A DNA stretch of 64,000 nt from assembly GCF_041886205.1 (NCBI RefSeq), contig NZ_CP169029.1; one strand, given 5' to 3'. Shown here in pieces: positions 18,413 through 30,126 of this stretch. A program made the position numbers and the translations under genes. Source of the stretch: Escherichia coli. GTDB taxonomy: Bacteria > Pseudomonadota > Gammaproteobacteria > Enterobacterales > Enterobacteriaceae. The notes below the pieces were generated by a model. It made no database searches. It worked only from the letters and a program-made list of their open reading frames with translations, and was not told where the DNA came from. Every line of letters begins with the position of its first letter. Position 1 is the first letter of the stretch.

Positions 18413-18428
18413 TATCATTCGAATGTAT

Positions 18429-18467
18429 GGTTTTATCATTTGTATTTAATATACAAATGATAAAACC
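18429..18467. repeat. perfect 17-bp inverted repeat (ggttttatcatttgtat / atacaaatgataaaacc), hairpin at the core/accessory junction
   Basis: Read directly; 5-nt spacer; followed by T-rich sequence; lies in the AT-rich 190-bp leader of the SinH-like gene. Confidence 0.5.
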
Positions 18468-18621
18468 TTCTCTTATTAGTTAAATCATTAATACATGTGA
18501 GTAAAATTATTTAGATATATTTTTAGGAATATATTTAGTTTTTCTGACGTGCCTTCCTGAATGTTCTGGCATAGAATATTAGAGCTTATTCATCAAATTA
18601 TCATTGCCACAGGGAAAGTGC

Positions 18622-20796
18622 ATGCTGCGATGGAGTCGCTTTATTATGTTACTATTCATCTCTGCTGCAACTCCTGCGGCAGAGATAAATAGTAAGCAAA
18701 ACGAATCGTTACCTGATTTAGGCAGCCAGGCGGCTCAACAAGTAGAACAAACGGATAAGGGTAAATCGTTAAAAGAGCGTGGAGCCGATTACGTCATTGA
18801 TTCTGCTACGCAAGGGTTTGAAAACCTAACCCCCGAGGCGCTGGAATCTCAGGCCAGAAGCTATCTGCAAAGTCAAATCACCTCAACCGCACAATCTTAT
18901 ATTGAAGACACACTCTCTCCCTACGGTAAGGTCCGTTCGAATCTCTCTATTGGTCAGGGTGGCGATCTGGATGGTAGCTCCATCGATTATTTTGTTCCCT
19001 GGTATGATAATCAAACGACCGTTTATTTCAGTCAATTTTCTGCGCAACGAAAAGAGGATCGTACGATCGGGAATATCGGAATTGGAGTAAGACATAATTT
19101 CGATGAATGGCTTTTGGGTGGGAATATATTTTACGATTATGATTTCACCCGTGGGCATCGTCGTTTAGGTTTAGGGACAGAAGCCTGGACCAATTATTTA
19201 AAATTTTCTGGCAACTATTATCATCCGCTCTCTGACTGGAAAAACTCTGAGGATTTCGACTTTTATGAAGAGCGTCCGGCGCGCGGTTGGGATATTCGTG
19301 CTGAAGCCTGGTTACCTTCTTATCCACAACTGGGGGGCAAGATTGTCTTCGAGCAATATTACGGTGATGAAGTCGCCCTTTTTGGTACGGATAATTTAGA
19401 GAAAGATCCCTATGCGGTGACGCTAGGACTAAATTATCAACCGGTACCGTTACTGACAGTTGGAACGGATTATAAAGCGGGGACCGGAGATAACAGCGAT
19501 GTCAGCATTAATGCCACTCTTAATTATCAGTTCGGCGTTCCGCTAAAAGATCAACTCGACAGCGATAAAGTAAAAGCAGTCCACTCGTTGATGGGTAGCC
19601 GACAGGACTTTGTCGAGCGTAATAACTTTATCGTCCTGGAATATAAAGAGAAAGACCCTCTGGATGTGACGTTGTGGCTGAAAGCGGATGCGACCAACGA
19701 GCATCCAGAGTGCGTCATTAAGGACACTCCTGAAGCGGCGGTCGGTCTGGAAAAATGTAAGTGGACCATTAACGCACTGATCAATCACCACTACAAAATT
19801 GTCGCTGCGTCATGGCAGGCGAAAAACAATGCCGCCCGCACGCTGGTGATGCCGGTCATCAAAGAAAATACCATCACTGAAGGCAACAACAACCACTGGA
19901 ATCTGATACTGCCAGCCTGGCAGTACAGCTCTGACAAAGCTGAGCAGGAAAAACTCAATACCTGGCGGGTACGGCTGGCGCTGGAAGATGAAAAAGGTAA
20001 TCGGCAAAACTCCGGCCTGGTGGAAATCACTGTTCAGCAGGACCGTAAAATAGAGCTTATCGTCAATAACATTGCCGATGCGCCTGCCGAGAATAACCAC
20101 AGCCATGAAGCCAGCGCTCAGGCGGATGGCGTTGATGGTGTAGTCATGGACCTCGAGGTGACGGACAGTTTTGGCGATAACACGGACCGCAACGGTGATG
20201 CTCTGCCAGAAGATAATCTTGCACCGCAGCTCTACGACGCTCAGGACAAAAAAGTCACGCTAACCAATAAACCCTGCTCGACCGACAACCCCTGCGTGTT
20301 TATTGCCAAACAAGATAAAGAAAAGGGAACGGTAACCCTCTCCAGTACATTGCCAGGCGTTTTCCGCTGGAAAGCGAAAGCGGCTCCCTACGATGACAGT
20401 AACTATGTGGATGTCACGTTTATTGGATCTGATATCGGCGGGCTTAATGCTTTCATTTACCGGCTTGGGGTAGCGAAGCCAGTCAATTTGATCGGCAATG
20501 ATAAAGACCCCCTGCCGCTGGGCAACACGTACCGATTTGTGTTGTGGCGTGATGCCAACAAAGACGGCGTTTTTCAGCAGTCGGAAAAACTAACCGATGA
20601 AGAGATGACTCAGTACGACTACAAGTGGGAATTTACCGGCAAGAGCATCAATGGCGAAGTAGGTGCGCAGGCGAACACATCCAATGCAGACATTGTAATA
20701 CCGGCGACCAACCGTGAAGCGGCGCAATCCTATGGTGCAAAAGTGGAAGATGGCTTGCAGGGATACGGTTTACGCGTGCTGTACACCAAAAAATAA
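18622..20796 (+). CDS. sinH: intimin/invasin-family inverse autotransporter adhesin (SinH-like)
   Basis: 724 aa from the ATG at 18622 (ORF-track start 18604 is an alternative upstream start); signal peptide MLRWSRFIMLLFISAATPAA; N-terminal beta-barrel-type region with alternating aromatic motifs (WTNYLKFSGNYYHPL, TLGLNYQPVP), then C-terminal passenger; position and architecture as recalled for Salmonella sinH. Confidence 0.75.
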   Translation: MLRWSRFIMLLFISAATPAAEINSKQNESLPDLGSQAAQQVEQTDKGKSLKERGADYVIDSATQGFENLTPEALESQARSYLQSQITSTAQSYIEDTLSPYGKVRSNLSIGQGGDLDGSSIDYFVPWYDNQTTVYFSQFSAQRKEDRTIGNIGIGVRHNFDEWLLGGNIFYDYDFTRGHRRLGLGTEAWTNYLKFSGNYYHPLSDWKNSEDFDFYEERPARGWDIRAEAWLPSYPQLGGKIVFEQYYGDEVALFGTDNLEKDPYAVTLGLNYQPVPLLTVGTDYKAGTGDNSDVSINATLNYQFGVPLKDQLDSDKVKAVHSLMGSRQDFVERNNFIVLEYKEKDPLDVTLWLKADATNEHPECVIKDTPEAAVGLEKCKWTINALINHHYKIVAASWQAKNNAARTLVMPVIKENTITEGNNNHWNLILPAWQYSSDKAEQEKLNTWRVRLALEDEKGNRQNSGLVEITVQQDRKIELIVNNIADAPAENNHSHEASAQADGVDGVVMDLEVTDSFGDNTDRNGDALPEDNLAPQLYDAQDKKVTLTNKPCSTDNPCVFIAKQDKEKGTVTLSSTLPGVFRWKAKAAPYDDSNYVDVTFIGSDIGGLNAFIYRLGVAKPVNLIGNDKDPLPLGNTYRFVLWRDANKDGVFQQSEKLTDEEMTQYDYKWEFTGKSINGEVGAQANTSNADIVIPATNREAAQSYGAKVEDGLQGYGLRVLYTKK

Positions 20797-27900: not shown

Positions 27901-30000
27901 ATAACCAGTCCCGACTCACCGAAAGCAAAATACTGGGGTCATATGGCCGACACGTTTACCAGCAGTGCGGGGGTGACCTTTAAACGACCACTACTGGCAG
28001 CGGAAGCGACCTCCGGGTCCTCGGTTGGCAGTAATAATGAGTCGTGGTCATACCTTAATGTTAACGACAGAGCTACGTCGGATTGCTCACTGGAGTATCA
28101 GCCGCGTCTCAATGAGTTACAGGGGTTATATAACGATCATCCTGGCGGGGCCATACAGACGGATCTGGGGTTACCTGTAGCTGCCGGAAGTGGAAACTGG
28201 TGGGCTTATGAAATGAGTATACCTAACCCCAGCGGGTCGGTGTGGTTTTACGGCATCATTAATTTGAAAACGGGACAATCGTCGACCACGTCGAGTGGAT
28301 TCGCTTTAATGCTCTGCCTGACGCAGCCGCATACGGTACCGGCAAGCCTTACACTGTCATCAACCGCCTACGATGAAGGCAGAACCGCCAGCAATGGTGG
28401 CACACCTACGTCATCTGTGAAAAAAGGTGAGACGCTTCCCTTAGTGGTGACGATCAAAGATGCCAATGGTAACCCCGTTGGCGGCGAAGGCGTTACGCTC
28501 AAGCGCGCGCAGGCGAAAAGCCGTTCAGGTATCTCTGTCTCCTCCACTACCGTTGATGATCTTATTTTAAATGAAGTCACACCGGAATCAGCCAGCTTTT
28601 CCTTCGCCGCGGATTTGGCATCATGGAGCGGCATCACCGGCAGTGACGGCACTGTAACGTTCAATATTACACAAAAAAATACCATCGGCCTGGTAACGCC
28701 GTTTACAGCCTCATTGGGGCGAAATCCGCAGGTCACCGCCAACCAGGACCTGATGTTCACGGTGGTAACCAGCCCGGATTCGCCGAAGGCAAACTACTGG
28801 GGGCATATGCCAGCAACCTTGACGGCAGTGAATGGTGCGGTATTTGAACGCCCGAAATTGTGGAGTGAACTGCCATCGACCTCCGGCGTCGGCAAGATCA
28901 ATAACAATAATGAGGACTGGCCGTACTATTCACCGACAAAAAAATCTGATGAGAGTGTGACCCCTTGCGAAGTGGCAAGACAGCCTCTGCTTAGTGATTT
29001 AAATTCGCTGTCTGCGCGTTATCCGGATAACACCTTCGCCGCTGAAACGGGCTGGTCTGTGTATTACACCTGGTGGGCAGAGGATAAATCCGCCGCGGGT
29101 AAAGATCAGTCGGTGGATTTGAGGAATGGCACGCTGTATACGAATGCAACAGGAGCATTTCTGCCATGCCTGGTTAATGCGCGTTCAACCGTTTCCAGCG
29201 TCACGCTCACCTCAACGGCGTTTGACGCTACCACTCAGGCGGCGAAAGTGAAAAAAGGCGAAGCCATGCCCGTTACCGTAACGGTGAAAGACAGCGCCGG
29301 GAAAACGGTGGCGAATGTGGCTTTTACCCTGAAACGCGGTGATGCTGCGCCAAGAAACCCAGGTATGGCCTTGTACGGCGATGTGGATGCGATGGATGAC
29401 ATGACCGTTCAGCCGACATCGGGAGCGGCGGTGACGTGGCCTGACAGTGGCAATGCTTTGCAGGGAACCACCGGTTCTGACGGTACGGCGACGTTTATGG
29501 TTAAACAGAATAATACGCCGGGTTATAAAACGCCGTTGACGGTCACGTTGGACAATAACACCAGCATCACTGCGACAATGGACGCTATTTTCACCGTAGT
29601 GACCAGCCCGAATGTCTCAAGCGCCTATTACTGGGGGCACATGGCAGATACGACCACGGTGAATGGTAAAACATTGCATCGCCCGTTGTTGGCATCGGAG
29701 CTACCTGCGAATGCTTCTTCCCCAGCCACGCCTGACGTAAACAATGAAGCCTGGGCTATGGGGCATATGGTGGATTCAAGGAATTGGGATATCGAGGCGC
29801 AGTGTGGCAGCTTGACCAACGCGCCAAACGATGACGACTTAATGGGTCTGTATACTAACTTTAGTTCGCTGGGTTGGCCTGCATCCCCGAGTTTTCCTTA
29901 CTTATCTTCTCAGAGATGCGGCGTGTTTGAAAACAGTGGACAACAGGACTGCGCTATTGCGCCAGGCAGCACAAAAGGTTTTGTGACTTGTACCCAATAA
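21949..30000 (+). CDS. giant secreted repetitive protein (2683 aa) with about 9 tandem ~280-aa modules containing Ig-like (BIG-type) segments; RatA/RatB/ShdA-family-like
   Basis: Signal peptide at the N-terminus; motif FTV-TSPD...WGHM recurs 9 times with 800-866-bp period (DNA positions about 22895, 23698, 24500, 25341, 26181, 27031, 27888, 28754, 29590); each module also has VKKGE...V.VTVKDA.GN...FTLKR and C(G)..Y.P...L..LY motifs. Confidence 0.8.
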
Positions 30001-30045
30001 GATCAATGTGGGGGGCCGCCTACGGCGGCCATACACAATGGACTT

Positions 30046-30126
30046 TGTAGGCCTGATAAGCGAAGCGCCATCAGGCATTGCGGCCCCAAACACCGAATGG
30101 CGGCTGCGCCTTGTCCGGCCTACAGG
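30046..30126. repeat. REP-like extragenic palindromes at the island/xseA junction
   Basis: tgtaggcctgataagcgaagcgccatcaggc and tggcggctgcgccttgtccggcctacagg resemble the E. coli REP consensus (GCCTGATG...CATCAGGC type). Confidence 0.55.

Follow-up and report, generated by a model that had tools for sequence, protein, structure and literature searches.

A rare, diverged allele of the sinH-sinI-ratA ('ila') adhesin cluster between yfgJ and xseA in an Escherichia coli strain with an A/B1-like backbone

Our analysis identifies, with high confidence, the region between yfgJ and xseA in a 64,000-nucleotide stretch of Escherichia coli DNA (the window) as the sinH-sinI-ratA ('ila') adhesin cluster of that species, the orthologue of the sinH-sinI-rat core in the CS54 island of Salmonella; this is the best joint explanation, taken together with the account of export and evolution given below. 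Judged by their sequences, the three genes are sinH, sinI and a ratA-like gene (Table 1), and we found nothing that argues against this identification. The cluster is not a new locus, having already been described and studied in E. coli, where it was named ila (GR17) and mapped xseA..yfgJ (PMC12928451, PMC12525524, PMC9937491, PMC6714894). Mutants with ila deleted are attenuated in mouse urinary tract infection (PMC12928451), sinH and sinI are co-transcribed (PMC12525524), SinH is a surface-located, protective antigen and vaccine candidate (PMC9937491) and IatB/SinH mediates biofilm formation (PMC6714894). Two features stand out here, a rare, diverged allele in an A/B1-like backbone and a motif common to SinI and the RatA-like protein.

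Table 1. Coordinates of the genes, motifs and non-coding elements of the cluster and its flanks (window positions).
Feature	Position	Strand	Basis or remark
yfgJ, 71-aa zinc-ribbon protein, left flank	18197..18412	+	ORF and RefSeq annotation
AT-rich leader upstream of sinH	18413..18621	+	composition, alignment
Perfect 17-bp inverted repeat, 5-nt loop	18429..18467	+	arms 18429-18445 and 18451-18467
sinH, inverse autotransporter (type Ve)	18622..20796	+	NF033423, IAT_beta, PDB matches
sinI, Sec-exported partner without barrel, 325 aa	20851..21828	+	NF040711
SinI motif, residues 30-50, directly after signal peptide: DSAWIESGETNIFQGTIPWLY	20938..21000	+	profile searches
Two tandem conserved hairpins, sinI-ratA spacer	21841..21906	+	consensus fold
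RatA-like giant protein, 2683 aa	21949..30000	+	NF011844, Pfam, PDB match
RatA-like motif, residues 28-48, directly after signal peptide	22030..22092	+	profile searches
G+C-rich hairpin GGCCGCC TAC GGCGGCC	30013..30032	+	13 nt past ratA stop
REP pair, opposite orientation	30046..30124	.	sequence read directly
xseA, right flank	30120..31496	-	458 aa

The interval from the yfgJ stop to the xseA stop corresponds exactly to window positions 18413-30119 (about 11.7 kb; ORFs and RefSeq annotation) and is filled by three intact plus-strand ORFs, so that the 11.7-kb stretch with three same-strand genes given in a preliminary description of this DNA was correct to the base. Homology with genomes in which the site is empty stops directly after the yfgJ TAA and restarts in the last codons of xseA (alignment), whose product has 458 aa versus 456 aa in K-12-type genomes and a different C-terminal tail. 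That description had given K-12 a short intergenic region. K-12 does lack the three genes at this locus, but xseA shares 4 bp with yfgJ in MG1655 and BL21, leaving nothing between the two genes; the site is empty, with the same 4-bp overlap, in O111:H8 also. An identical sequence occurs in strain wlxctx60, where RefSeq labels the genes sinH, 'SinI family autotransporter-associated protein' and 'adhesion domain-containing protein'. The spacers around the three genes measure just 209, 54, 120 and 119 bp, leaving no room for a mobility gene, and we found no integrase or transposase among the ORFs of the yfgJ/xseA interval, no tRNA gene at the island and no direct repeat longer than chance around it, in keeping with the earlier statement that mobility genes are absent.

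The family assignments rest on curated models, and the similarity to intimin/invasin and Rat-family proteins seen earlier is borne out by them and by the solved structures 4E1T and 4E1S. SinH, 724 aa from the RefSeq ATG (730 aa for the mechanical ORF from the TTG at 18604), scores 1458.8 bits against the NCBIfam equivalog NF033423 (cut-off 999), confirming it as a SinH-like inverse autotransporter. It consists of a Sec signal peptide, a beta-barrel of the 12-stranded type (approximately residues 57-342) and a C-terminal passenger of about 380 aa; residues 57-330 match Pfam IAT_beta (E 4.7e-107) and residues 100-342 the beta-domains of invasin (4E1T, E 3.5e-72) and intimin (4E1S, E 6.9e-63). 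A Pfam search of the passenger recognised neither Big domains nor a LysM domain, and the last ~100 residues are homologous to the C-terminus of SinI (BLASTP 4e-13; NF040711 cross-match 1e-21). From reports on its E. coli homologues, SinH would be expected to reside in the outer membrane, with its passenger serving as a surface-displayed adhesin. SinI, described earlier as a small SinI-like secreted partner, indeed exceeds the cut-off of NF040711 (342.9 versus 165 bits); it has a weak match to the ZirU family over residues 71-204 (E 7e-6; 26 bits versus a cut-off of 100), and its AlphaFold model is all-beta (pLDDT 73).

The giant protein is encoded by an uninterrupted ORF of 8052 bp and matches NF011844, 'RatA-like protein', end to end (2683/2683 positions; 5240 bits, cut-off 3870). 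Behind its signal peptide come a conserved N-terminal domain (~28-216) and nine tandem BIg21 + InvE_AD modules with a period of 268-288 aa, along which Pfam PF05688 and PF05689 alternate and a WGHM motif recurs at 329, 597, 865, 1147, 1427, 1711, 1996, 2284 and 2562; one module matches PDB 5N40, a 'putative invasin' (E 2.4e-29). By family scoring it is a member of the E. coli RatA-like family, in line with its earlier designation as a RatA/B-like giant. Its scores fall below the equivalog cut-offs for both Salmonella RatA (2058 versus 3700) and RatB (2260 versus 4079), ruling it out as an orthologue of either.

SinI and the RatA-like protein both have signal peptides, neither has an anchor or a barrel, and directly after the signal peptide they have a motif in common that was recovered by profile searches in both directions and was absent from SinH in such searches. 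Among 18 SinI proteins there is no or almost no variation at W34, T40, G45, T46, P48 and W49; among 19 RatA-like proteins W32, G44 and P47 never vary, and Q33, N43 and T45 hardly do. The SinI of the window has a more diverged form, which scores only via the family alignment (direct BLASTP against RatA, E 0.48). It is possible that this motif is an export tag. Modelled on ZirT/ZirS/ZirU and on two-partner secretion, SinI and the RatA-like protein would cross the inner membrane via Sec, and SinH would then assist their transfer to the surface, the motif being a candidate recognition segment for this second step. It has been suggested that Rat-like proteins are substrates for the inverse autotransporter encoded next to them (PMC4943183), and secretion of ZirS needs ZirT (PMC2270342). 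The Zir analogy is weakened by ZirU probably being without the N-terminal motif, since its profile aligns with SinI residues 71-204 from ZirU position 20 onwards. The passage of a 2683-aa protein of folded domains through a single invasin-type barrel is also hard to picture and counts against the export model, the prevailing view, considered in PMC4943183, being that the linker of such a barrel plugs it.

The retention of sinH-sinI-rat together and in order across at least six genera, and also on an integrase-linked copy in E2348/69, speaks against a second reading, possible but rather doubtful, in which SinH is a self-contained adhesin and the other two proteins are periplasmic, or surfaced otherwise, and merely co-regulated neighbours. 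This reading would fit the biofilm formed by IatB/SinH without the downstream gene, an observation that counts against the export model (PMC6714894), as well as the finding that SinH alone is surface-exposed and protective (PMC9937491), the differing phenotypes of individual Salmonella genes reported in a table of PMC3680342 citing Kingsley 2003, and the barrel of SinH, which is of the invasin/intimin type and not known to pass other proteins. It fits less well with two exported proteins that have no anchor or barrel of their own, with their mature N-terminal motif absent from SinH, with the C-terminal domain common to SinH and SinI, and with the ZirT precedent (PMC2270342). We favour the SinH-aided route as a working model.

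Several non-coding elements surround the genes. The leader was rightly called AT-rich, with 26.8% G+C over its 209 bp versus 50.8% for the whole island, and within it the block TTTTTAGGAATATATTTAG (18520-18538) and a TAnAAT hexamer (18572-18577) are conserved in an alignment across Escherichia, Pseudocitrobacter, Citrobacter MGH106 and Superficieibacter. A consensus scan called no canonical sigma-70 promoter in it, and the leader probably holds the operon under the control of a nucleoid protein or an activator. The 17-bp perfect palindrome noted earlier is confirmed: its arms, 17 nt past the yfgJ stop, are 100% complementary and are followed by TTCTCTTATT. It was flagged as terminator-like and folds with an RNA dG of -21.1 kcal/mol (z -7.5), and in 042 and ST131 the differences in the arms give G.U pairs on the plus strand only, with 19-bp stems (dG -20.3 and -21.7 kcal/mol); in an alignment of leader relatives it was not recognisable in other species. 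As RNA it would probably form a hairpin that terminates the der-yfgJ transcript. Of the two hairpins in the sinI-ratA spacer, the first has a G+C-containing stem of 10-12 bp followed by UUUCC...UUUUG and the second a 17-bp stem (consensus fold -44.6 kcal/mol; single-sequence z -5.9), and four pairs are kept via changes on both sides in the ST131 allele; perhaps acting as an attenuator or processing site, they probably set the sinHI:ratA expression ratio. The hairpin behind ratA (dG -21.6 kcal/mol with flanks, z -3.6) may be the transcript end, a function made uncertain by its having no T-run. The REP elements reported on this flank proved to be an inverted pair, a canonical one at ~30046-30077 (TGTAGGCCTGATAAGCGAAGCGCCATCAGGCA) and a second at ~30095-30124 that includes the xseA stop codon; the REP-derived Rfam family naRNA4 matches at 30050-30120 below threshold (25.7 versus 59.5 bits).

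Distribution and G+C profile, both proposed as checks in the preliminary description, bear on the origin of the locus. We found sinH in 1747 of 5426 complete E. coli genomes. E. coli 042, ST131 and GPEC1352 share this gene trio, its order and its junction, and the order yfgJ-sinH-sinI-rat-xseA recurs in E. whittamii, E. albertii, Escherichia sp., Pseudocitrobacter, Superficieibacter and Citrobacter. Composition is native, the island having 50.8% G+C versus 50-52% in the flanks and a GC3 of 0.50-0.57 versus 0.54-0.61. The same junction across genera, the native G+C and the lack of a tRNA, integrase or flanking repeats indicate that the locus is most likely ancient, inherited vertically within Escherichia and related taxa, and that the K-12 lineage lost it by a clean deletion. 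The earlier word 'insert' thus holds as to absence from K-12 and is doubtful as to insertion. Salmonella CS54 is said to have been placed by Kingsley et al. in 2003 at this same xseA/yfgJ junction, which, like its occupation in the other Escherichia species and genera, the matching G+C and GC3, the co-divergence of yfgJ and xseA with the island and the lack of an integrase, transposase, tRNA or flanking repeat, makes it unlikely that a mobile genomic island was recently acquired and inserted here between the two genes. Such an acquisition could account for the absence of the cluster from K-12, BL21 and O111:H8 and for the low G+C of the leader, and some reviews, PMC12525524 among them, call the cluster horizontally acquired. 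In E2348/69 a related sinH-sinI-rat cluster adjoins a tyrosine recombinase and an IS4 remnant, which also points towards mobility; that copy lies between der and yfgJ and not at the present junction. The block is far more diverged than the backbone and was possibly imported, though by homologous recombination.

This divergence is what sets the present allele apart. At 95% identity or more it is found in 10 of the 5426 genomes, which come from different hosts and countries, and the nearest common alleles are ~84% identical in nucleotide sequence. Compared with BL21, the sequence has 2 mismatches in 16600-18126 and dense mismatches from 18127, which on the right side stay dense to ~31130; the diverged block of ~13 kb begins at the der stop, ends about one third of the way into xseA and takes in the 3' two-thirds of that gene. 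It also includes yfgJ, whose product is 65% identical in amino acids to BL21 YfgJ versus 82-83% to that of island-bearing strains. The host backbone is phylogroup A/B1-like, of lineages normally without the cluster; the closely related strain PT62 has been typed as B1 (PMC9045152), and commensals of groups A and B1 were reported to lack sinH in a published survey (PMC9937491). Since the block is much more diverged than this backbone, either an unsampled E. coli lineage donated it through homologous recombination or it is an old haplotype that was kept. It is very unlikely that this commensal-type strain carries the cluster only as a silenced or decaying relic. In favour of that reading are the AT-rich leader, which would be typical of H-NS-silenced genes, the lack of a consensus promoter in the scan and several annotated pseudogenes in the hyf operon of this genome. 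Against it, all three frames are intact, including the 8052-bp ORF, the intact allele occurs in the 10 genomes of varied origin and all nine repeats keep their domain signatures.

Among the closest known systems is the ila cluster of ExPEC/UPEC strains such as CFT073, UTI89, BEN2908 and ST131, with IatB as another name of SinH: genes, order, strand and junction are the same, and ila of ExPEC/UPEC matches the same NCBIfam families. Compared with other E. coli ila alleles, SinH is 88-93%, SinI 69-89% and the RatA-like protein 67-82% identical, and whereas those alleles sit in B2/D/F/G backbones, this rare diverged one sits in an A/B1-like backbone. The parallel with CS54 of Salmonella enterica (shdA, ratB, ratA, sinI/sivI, sinH/sivH) drawn in the preliminary description holds for the sinH-sinI-rat core, in which the domains are the same and SinH and SinI match Salmonella-derived family models; with only one rat gene and no shdA, the cluster corresponds to this three-gene core and not to the whole island. 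E. coli IatB and Salmonella SinH are 74% identical (PMC6714894). Salmonella ZirT/ZirS/ZirU follow the same logic, an inverse autotransporter barrel gene being followed by Sec-dependent, barrel-less, beta-rich proteins that have a domain in common with the passenger of the barrel protein, but zirTSU has no giant repeat protein and probably no ZirU counterpart of the N-terminal motif. Finally, the barrels of Yersinia invasin and EPEC intimin are homologous to that of SinH (4E1T, 4E1S), and the RatA-like repeat pairs an Ig-like domain with an adhesion domain homologous to that of the 5N40 invasin (Pfam InvE_AD); unlike in invasin and intimin, the adhesive module is here carried on a separate, barrel-less protein and repeated nine times.

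The three genes between yfgJ and xseA form a locus of an already known kind, in an instance that had already been annotated, and the preliminary description interpreted it correctly; the remaining novelty lies in a rare allele set in an A/B1-like backbone and in an N-terminal motif common to SinI and the RatA-like protein. As that description had it, the interval 18413-30119 is filled by three genes on one strand, including the one for the giant protein (see table), and, given where yfgJ and xseA end, it takes in precisely what lies between two convergent stop codons. The spacers of 209, 54, 120 and 119 bp leave room for no further gene, in particular for no integrase or transposase. 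In the RefSeq annotation the neighbourhood reads yfhM, pbpC, a four-gene DMSO/selenate-type reductase cluster, ndk, rlmN, rodZ, ispG, hisS, yfgM, bamB and der, then a zinc-ribbon gene (yfgJ), sinH, a 'SinI family autotransporter-associated protein' and an 'adhesion domain-containing protein', followed by xseA on the opposite strand, guaB and guaA. The chromosome of strain wlxctx60 (Japanese black bear faeces) gives a 100% full-length match to 12.6 kb around the island. Two other loci of the window deserve mention. The reductase cluster (4338-9013, minus strand) is missing between pbpC and ndk in BL21, O111:H8, 042 and ST131 and is found in 380 of 5426 complete genomes, with six of eight sampled records belonging to O157:H7 or O55:H7. 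The hyf (hydrogenase 4) operon (~54264-63955, minus strand) has four annotated pseudogenes, hyfB, hyfD and hyfI being frameshifted and hyfF having an internal stop, which reflects either real decay or assembly error.

Features of the yfgJ-xseA region, in window coordinates
Feature	Position	Strand	Remarks
yfgJ	18197-18412		ends at 18412
17-bp perfect palindrome	18429-18445 and 18451-18467		two arms
AT-rich block TTTTTAGGAATATATTTAG	18520-18538		upstream of sinH
TAnAAT hexamer	18572-18577		upstream of sinH
sinH	18622-20796	+	724 aa from annotated ATG
sinI	20851-21828	+	325 aa; starts 54 bp past sinH stop
N-terminal motif, SinI	20938-21000		residues 30-50; also in comparison loci L011-L027 and L033
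Two tandem hairpins	21841-21906		sinI-ratA spacer
RatA-like gene	21949-30000	+	2683 aa
N-terminal motif, RatA-like	22030-22092		residues 28-48; also in comparison loci L011-L027 and L033
Canonical REP	~30046-30077		right spacer
Second REP, inverted			contains xseA stop
xseA	ends at 30120	-	

SinH has two features of an inverse autotransporter (type Ve; intimin/invasin family), a Sec signal peptide, seen by inspection of the translation (MLRWSRFIMLLFISAATPAA followed by EINS), and an N-terminal barrel ahead of the passenger, matched by Pfam PF11924 (IAT_beta type) at residues 57-330 (E 4.7e-107). Residues 100-342 match invasin (4E1T, E 3.5e-72) and intimin (4E1S, E 6.9e-63) in the PDB, and residues 1-719 align to positions 6-730 of the 730-column equivalog NCBIfam NF033423 with 1458.8 bits (cut-off 999). 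A Pfam search of the passenger, the ~380 residues past the barrel, found no domain, a remark also made by others (PMC4943183). SinI, encoded directly downstream, scores 342.9 bits against NF040711 (cut-off 165) and at residues 71-204 resembles the ZirU family weakly and below threshold (26.3 vs 100 bits); its last ~115 residues are homologous to the SinH C-terminus (BLASTP 4e-13). Its predicted structure is a moderate all-beta model (pLDDT 73.2, pTM 0.68). We considered an 'Ig-like fold' for SinI, which is not established, since Foldseek returned only non-specific Ig/FN3-like hits and no PDB match at E <= 0.001, and no ZirS or ZirU structure was retrieved; a sequence search of the PDB likewise found no match.

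The giant protein consists of a signal peptide, a conserved N-terminal domain and nine modules with a period of 268-288 residues, each an alternating PF05688/PF05689 pair, i.e. BIg21 (formerly DUF824) and the adhesion domain InvE_AD (formerly DUF823); one module matches PDB 5N40, a 'putative invasin' (E 2.4e-29). It aligns to positions 3-2683 of the 2683-column RatA-like equivalog NF011844/PRK15316 with 5240.2 bits (cut-off 3870) and falls below the equivalog cut-offs for Salmonella RatA (NF011843, 2058.4 vs 3700) and RatB (NF011842, 2260.5 vs 4079); judged by these scores, it is a homologue and not an orthologue of either. The SinH-like inverse autotransporter and SinI-like partner of the preliminary description are thus borne out by their profile scores, the former also by the 4E1T and 4E1S barrels, and the expected similarity to the intimin/invasin and Rat families is present in both profile and PDB matches, while its 'RatA/B-like' giant protein stands as RatA-like and does not reach the level of Salmonella RatA or RatB.

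The same description took the cluster for an insert and gave K-12 a short intergenic region here. The cluster is indeed missing from this locus in MG1655, but there is no intergenic region there: yfgJ and xseA overlap by 4 bp in K-12 MG1655, BL21 and one O111:H8 strain. When occupied and empty sites are aligned, homology stops just past the yfgJ TAA and restarts in the last xseA codons. Both flanking genes vary. The yfgJ product is hypervariable, mostly in its N-terminal half, sharing 65% of its residues with the K-12/BL21 type and 82-83% with YfgJ of other strains that carry the island, and XseA has 458 residues vs 456 in K-12, with two extra codons and another C-terminal tail (30120-30147), its stop codon lying inside a REP element. 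The idea of an insertion finds no support in the composition of the island, which the GC and codon-usage profile puts at 50.8% G+C, with G+C and GC3 matching those of the flanks. As the description had observed, mobility genes are absent; the island has no tRNA gene, there are no flanking direct repeats beyond chance, and a 9-nt inverted match between the yfgJ stop (ATCGCTTAA) and the inside of xseA (TTAAGCGAT) is in the chance range (27 of 200 shuffles gave at least 9). None of the marks of a mobile genomic island (integrase or transposase, tRNA/att target, direct repeats, deviant composition) was thus found.

The distribution of the cluster points in the same direction. A megablast search recovers sinH of this kind from 1747 of 5426 complete E. 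coli genomes, in each case on the chromosome, and the giant gene can be aligned in 938; the same three-gene order and junction are seen in E. coli 042, one ST131 strain and GPEC1352. When a single genome of each species was scanned across genera, the order yfgJ-sinH-sinI-rat-xseA turned up in E. whittamii, E. albertii, two unnamed Escherichia species, three Pseudocitrobacter, two Superficieibacter and four Citrobacter, and the cluster without its yfgJ/xseA flanks in Leminorella; across the compared loci the giant gene ranges from roughly 1850 to 3000 codons. With native G+C and GC3, no mobility features and a junction occupied in many relatives, the locus looks ancestral, with clean loss in K-12-like lineages, rather than inserted. 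The label of an acquired pathogenicity island suits it less well than that of an ancient surface-protein locus, hypervariable and gone from the K-12 lineage. Even so, a related cluster is able to move, as a derivative of the O127:H6 EPEC strain E2348/69 shows (L033, 16361-29940): there, sinH, sinI and a short rat gene (760 aa) lie between der and yfgJ, adjoining a tyrosine recombinase and an IS4 remnant, with yfgJ and xseA overlapping as in the empty type. Here a second and apparently mobile form of the cluster occupies a site close by.

The allele carried by the window is rare and strongly diverged. It is about 84% identical in nucleotides to the nearest common E. coli alleles, and no species sampled in the cross-genus comparison is closer to it than those are; protein identities to 042, GPEC1352 and ST131 are 93, 93 and 88% for SinH, 89, 89 and 69% for SinI, and 75, 82 and 67% for the RatA-like protein. 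At 95% identity or more, the allele occurs in only 10 of the 5426 genomes, which are small, at 4.57-4.82 Mb, and whose sources are pig, cattle, poultry, pigeon, guinea fowl, bear and humans. The backbone of the window is 98.5-99.2% identical to BL21 and O111:H8, 98.1-98.3% to 042 and 96.8-97.8% to ST131, and the surrounding chromosome is A/B1-like. The stretch 16600-18126 has only two mismatches to BL21; from 18127 on, where der ends, they crowd together, and they remain dense up to ~31130, inside xseA. The resulting block of ~13 kb (~18127 to ~31130) takes in the der stop along with yfgJ, the whole island and, of xseA, the 3' two-thirds. Its divergence far exceeds that of the backbone, which immediately to its left is 100% identical to BL21, and it is an old haplotype inside a much younger backbone, owing to homologous recombination or to long retention. 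A cryptic Escherichia clade was considered as the source of the window, because the flanks scored only ~94%, and rejected, since the backbone has 98.5-100% identity with BL21 and O111:H8; the ~94% score reflects the divergence of the yfgJ and xseA ends, not the backbone.

Strain PT62, typed as phylogroup B1, ST6775 (PMC9045152), has flanks identical to those of the window; the difference, of 3-6% (94-97% identity), is concentrated in the central repeats of the giant gene (22900-26900), which suggests that the repeat array recombines or changes quickly. Published work (PMC9937491) records SinH from phylogroups B2, D, F and G and reports none from commensals of A or B1. A/B1-like strains of animal and human origin carry an allele that differs from those of ExPEC, with identities of only 88-93% for SinH and 67-82% for the RatA-like protein, which bears on vaccine coverage and on the use of sinH as an ExPEC marker.

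The non-coding DNA of the island contains several conserved elements. The AT-rich leader, the 17-bp perfect palindrome and the REP elements of the right flank, all noted in the preliminary description, are there, the leader having 26.8% G+C over its 209 bp. As RNA, the palindrome folds with -21.1 kcal/mol (z -7.5). As DNA, it is imperfect in 042 and ST131, and the differences in its arms are G.U-compatible on the plus strand only, which suggests an RNA hairpin closing the der-yfgJ transcript rather than a protein-binding DNA palindrome. Among the compared species outside E. coli, it has no recognisable counterpart. Further along the leader, the AT-rich block and the TAnAAT hexamer are kept from Escherichia to Superficieibacter, while the rest is not, and these two are candidates for a regulator site and a -10 element, respectively; a consensus promoter scan of the leader found no sigma-70 site and, taken as a whole, gave fewer sites than shuffled sequence did. 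The tandem hairpins between sinI and ratA occur in all compared E. coli alleles, and in four of their base pairs both partners have changed so that pairing is preserved (fold z -5.9). Their role between sinHI and ratA may be attenuation or processing, and they are consistent with the reported co-transcription of sinH and sinI (PMC12525524). An Rfam scan of the island found no family above threshold, and a sub-threshold match to the REP-derived naRNA4 in the right spacer.

SinI and the RatA-like protein have in common a motif of ~20 residues directly past the signal peptide, W-Q-x5-[ST]-T-x2-[IF]-x-G-T-x-P, often with L-K-x-G just ahead, which is kept across at least six genera and is absent from SinH; in C. 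gillenii, for example, it reads NLKSGQWQIVSDSTGTIQGTVPW in SinI and ALKSGTWQEVNTSTDAINGTVPL in the RatA-like protein. A profile of the SinI N-terminus finds this segment at residues ~27-52 in 19 of 20 RatA-like proteins, with E-values down to 7e-7 (550 ORFs). The reverse profile (36 columns, signal peptide excluded) recovers 12 SinI ORFs at E 1e-6 to 3e-3 among 6013 six-frame ORFs, all ahead of the first decoy (E 0.19). Significance is reached through family profiles only: the SinI of the window has a more diverged form, DSAWIESGETNIFQGTIPW, which aligns within the family, and its direct BLASTP comparison with the RatA-like N-terminus is not significant (E 0.48). In Leminorella grimontii (L024), a 270-aa ORF downstream of the RatA-like gene (from ~22361, plus strand) also has the motif (E 1.7e-10 with the RatA N-terminus profile) and may encode a third partner protein in that species. 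Rat-like N-termini have been described as highly divergent (PMC4943183).

The cluster thus combines one barrel protein with two barrel-less proteins that have signal peptides. SinH would be an outer-membrane adhesin, and SinI and the RatA-like protein would need it to reach the surface. It is tempting to see in the motif a targeting segment by which SinH-type barrels would recognise their barrel-less partners, a counterpart of the TPS domain of two-partner secretion; we regard this as a rather unlikely reading, which, if true, would make the 'inverse autotransporter as translocase' model directly testable by deletion or grafting of the motif. The motif provides a concrete handle on whether SinH exports its neighbours. 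The profile alignment suggests that ZirU probably has no room for it.

Among known systems, CS54 of Salmonella comprises five genes, shdA, ratB, ratA, sinI and sinH, whereas the window locus has three; neither a ShdA-type classical autotransporter ORF nor a second rat gene is present between yfgJ and xseA, either among the ORFs or in the RefSeq annotation. The window locus lies, as CS54 does, between xseA and yfgJ, the junction at which Kingsley et al. reportedly placed the Salmonella island in 2003, and it corresponds to the CS54 core only. The parallel with CS54 proposed in the preliminary description therefore holds for the sinH-sinI-rat core and, given the reported position of the Salmonella island, for the junction, and fails for shdA and for the number of rat genes. 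The two peptide patterns of our genome scan missed Salmonella, so this comparison rests on NCBIfam models and the literature.

The closest counterpart is the ila cluster of E. coli (GR17), in which sinH, sinI and ratA likewise stand together at xseA..yfgJ; it is regarded as a derivative of Salmonella CS54, strains from which it was deleted show attenuation in a mouse model of urinary-tract infection (PMC12928451), and it is defined at the same region in a second report (PMC12525524). The E. coli SinH homologue is surface-located and a protective antigen (PMC9937491) and, under the name IatB, promotes biofilm (PMC6714894). With the locus named, auto-annotated by NCBI, surveyed across phylogroups, studied in mouse urinary-tract and sepsis models and under development as a vaccine antigen, the discovery value of the cluster itself is small. 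Export of SinI-like and Rat-like neighbours by SinH-type barrels has been proposed on the analogy of ZirT/ZirS/ZirU (PMC4943183). ZirT-dependent secretion of ZirS is experimental, and ZirTS is described without any such targeting hallmark (PMC2270342); the likeness of the window locus to ZirTSU, seen here at the sequence level, consists of the operon logic, the signal peptides and the sub-threshold ZirU match of SinI.
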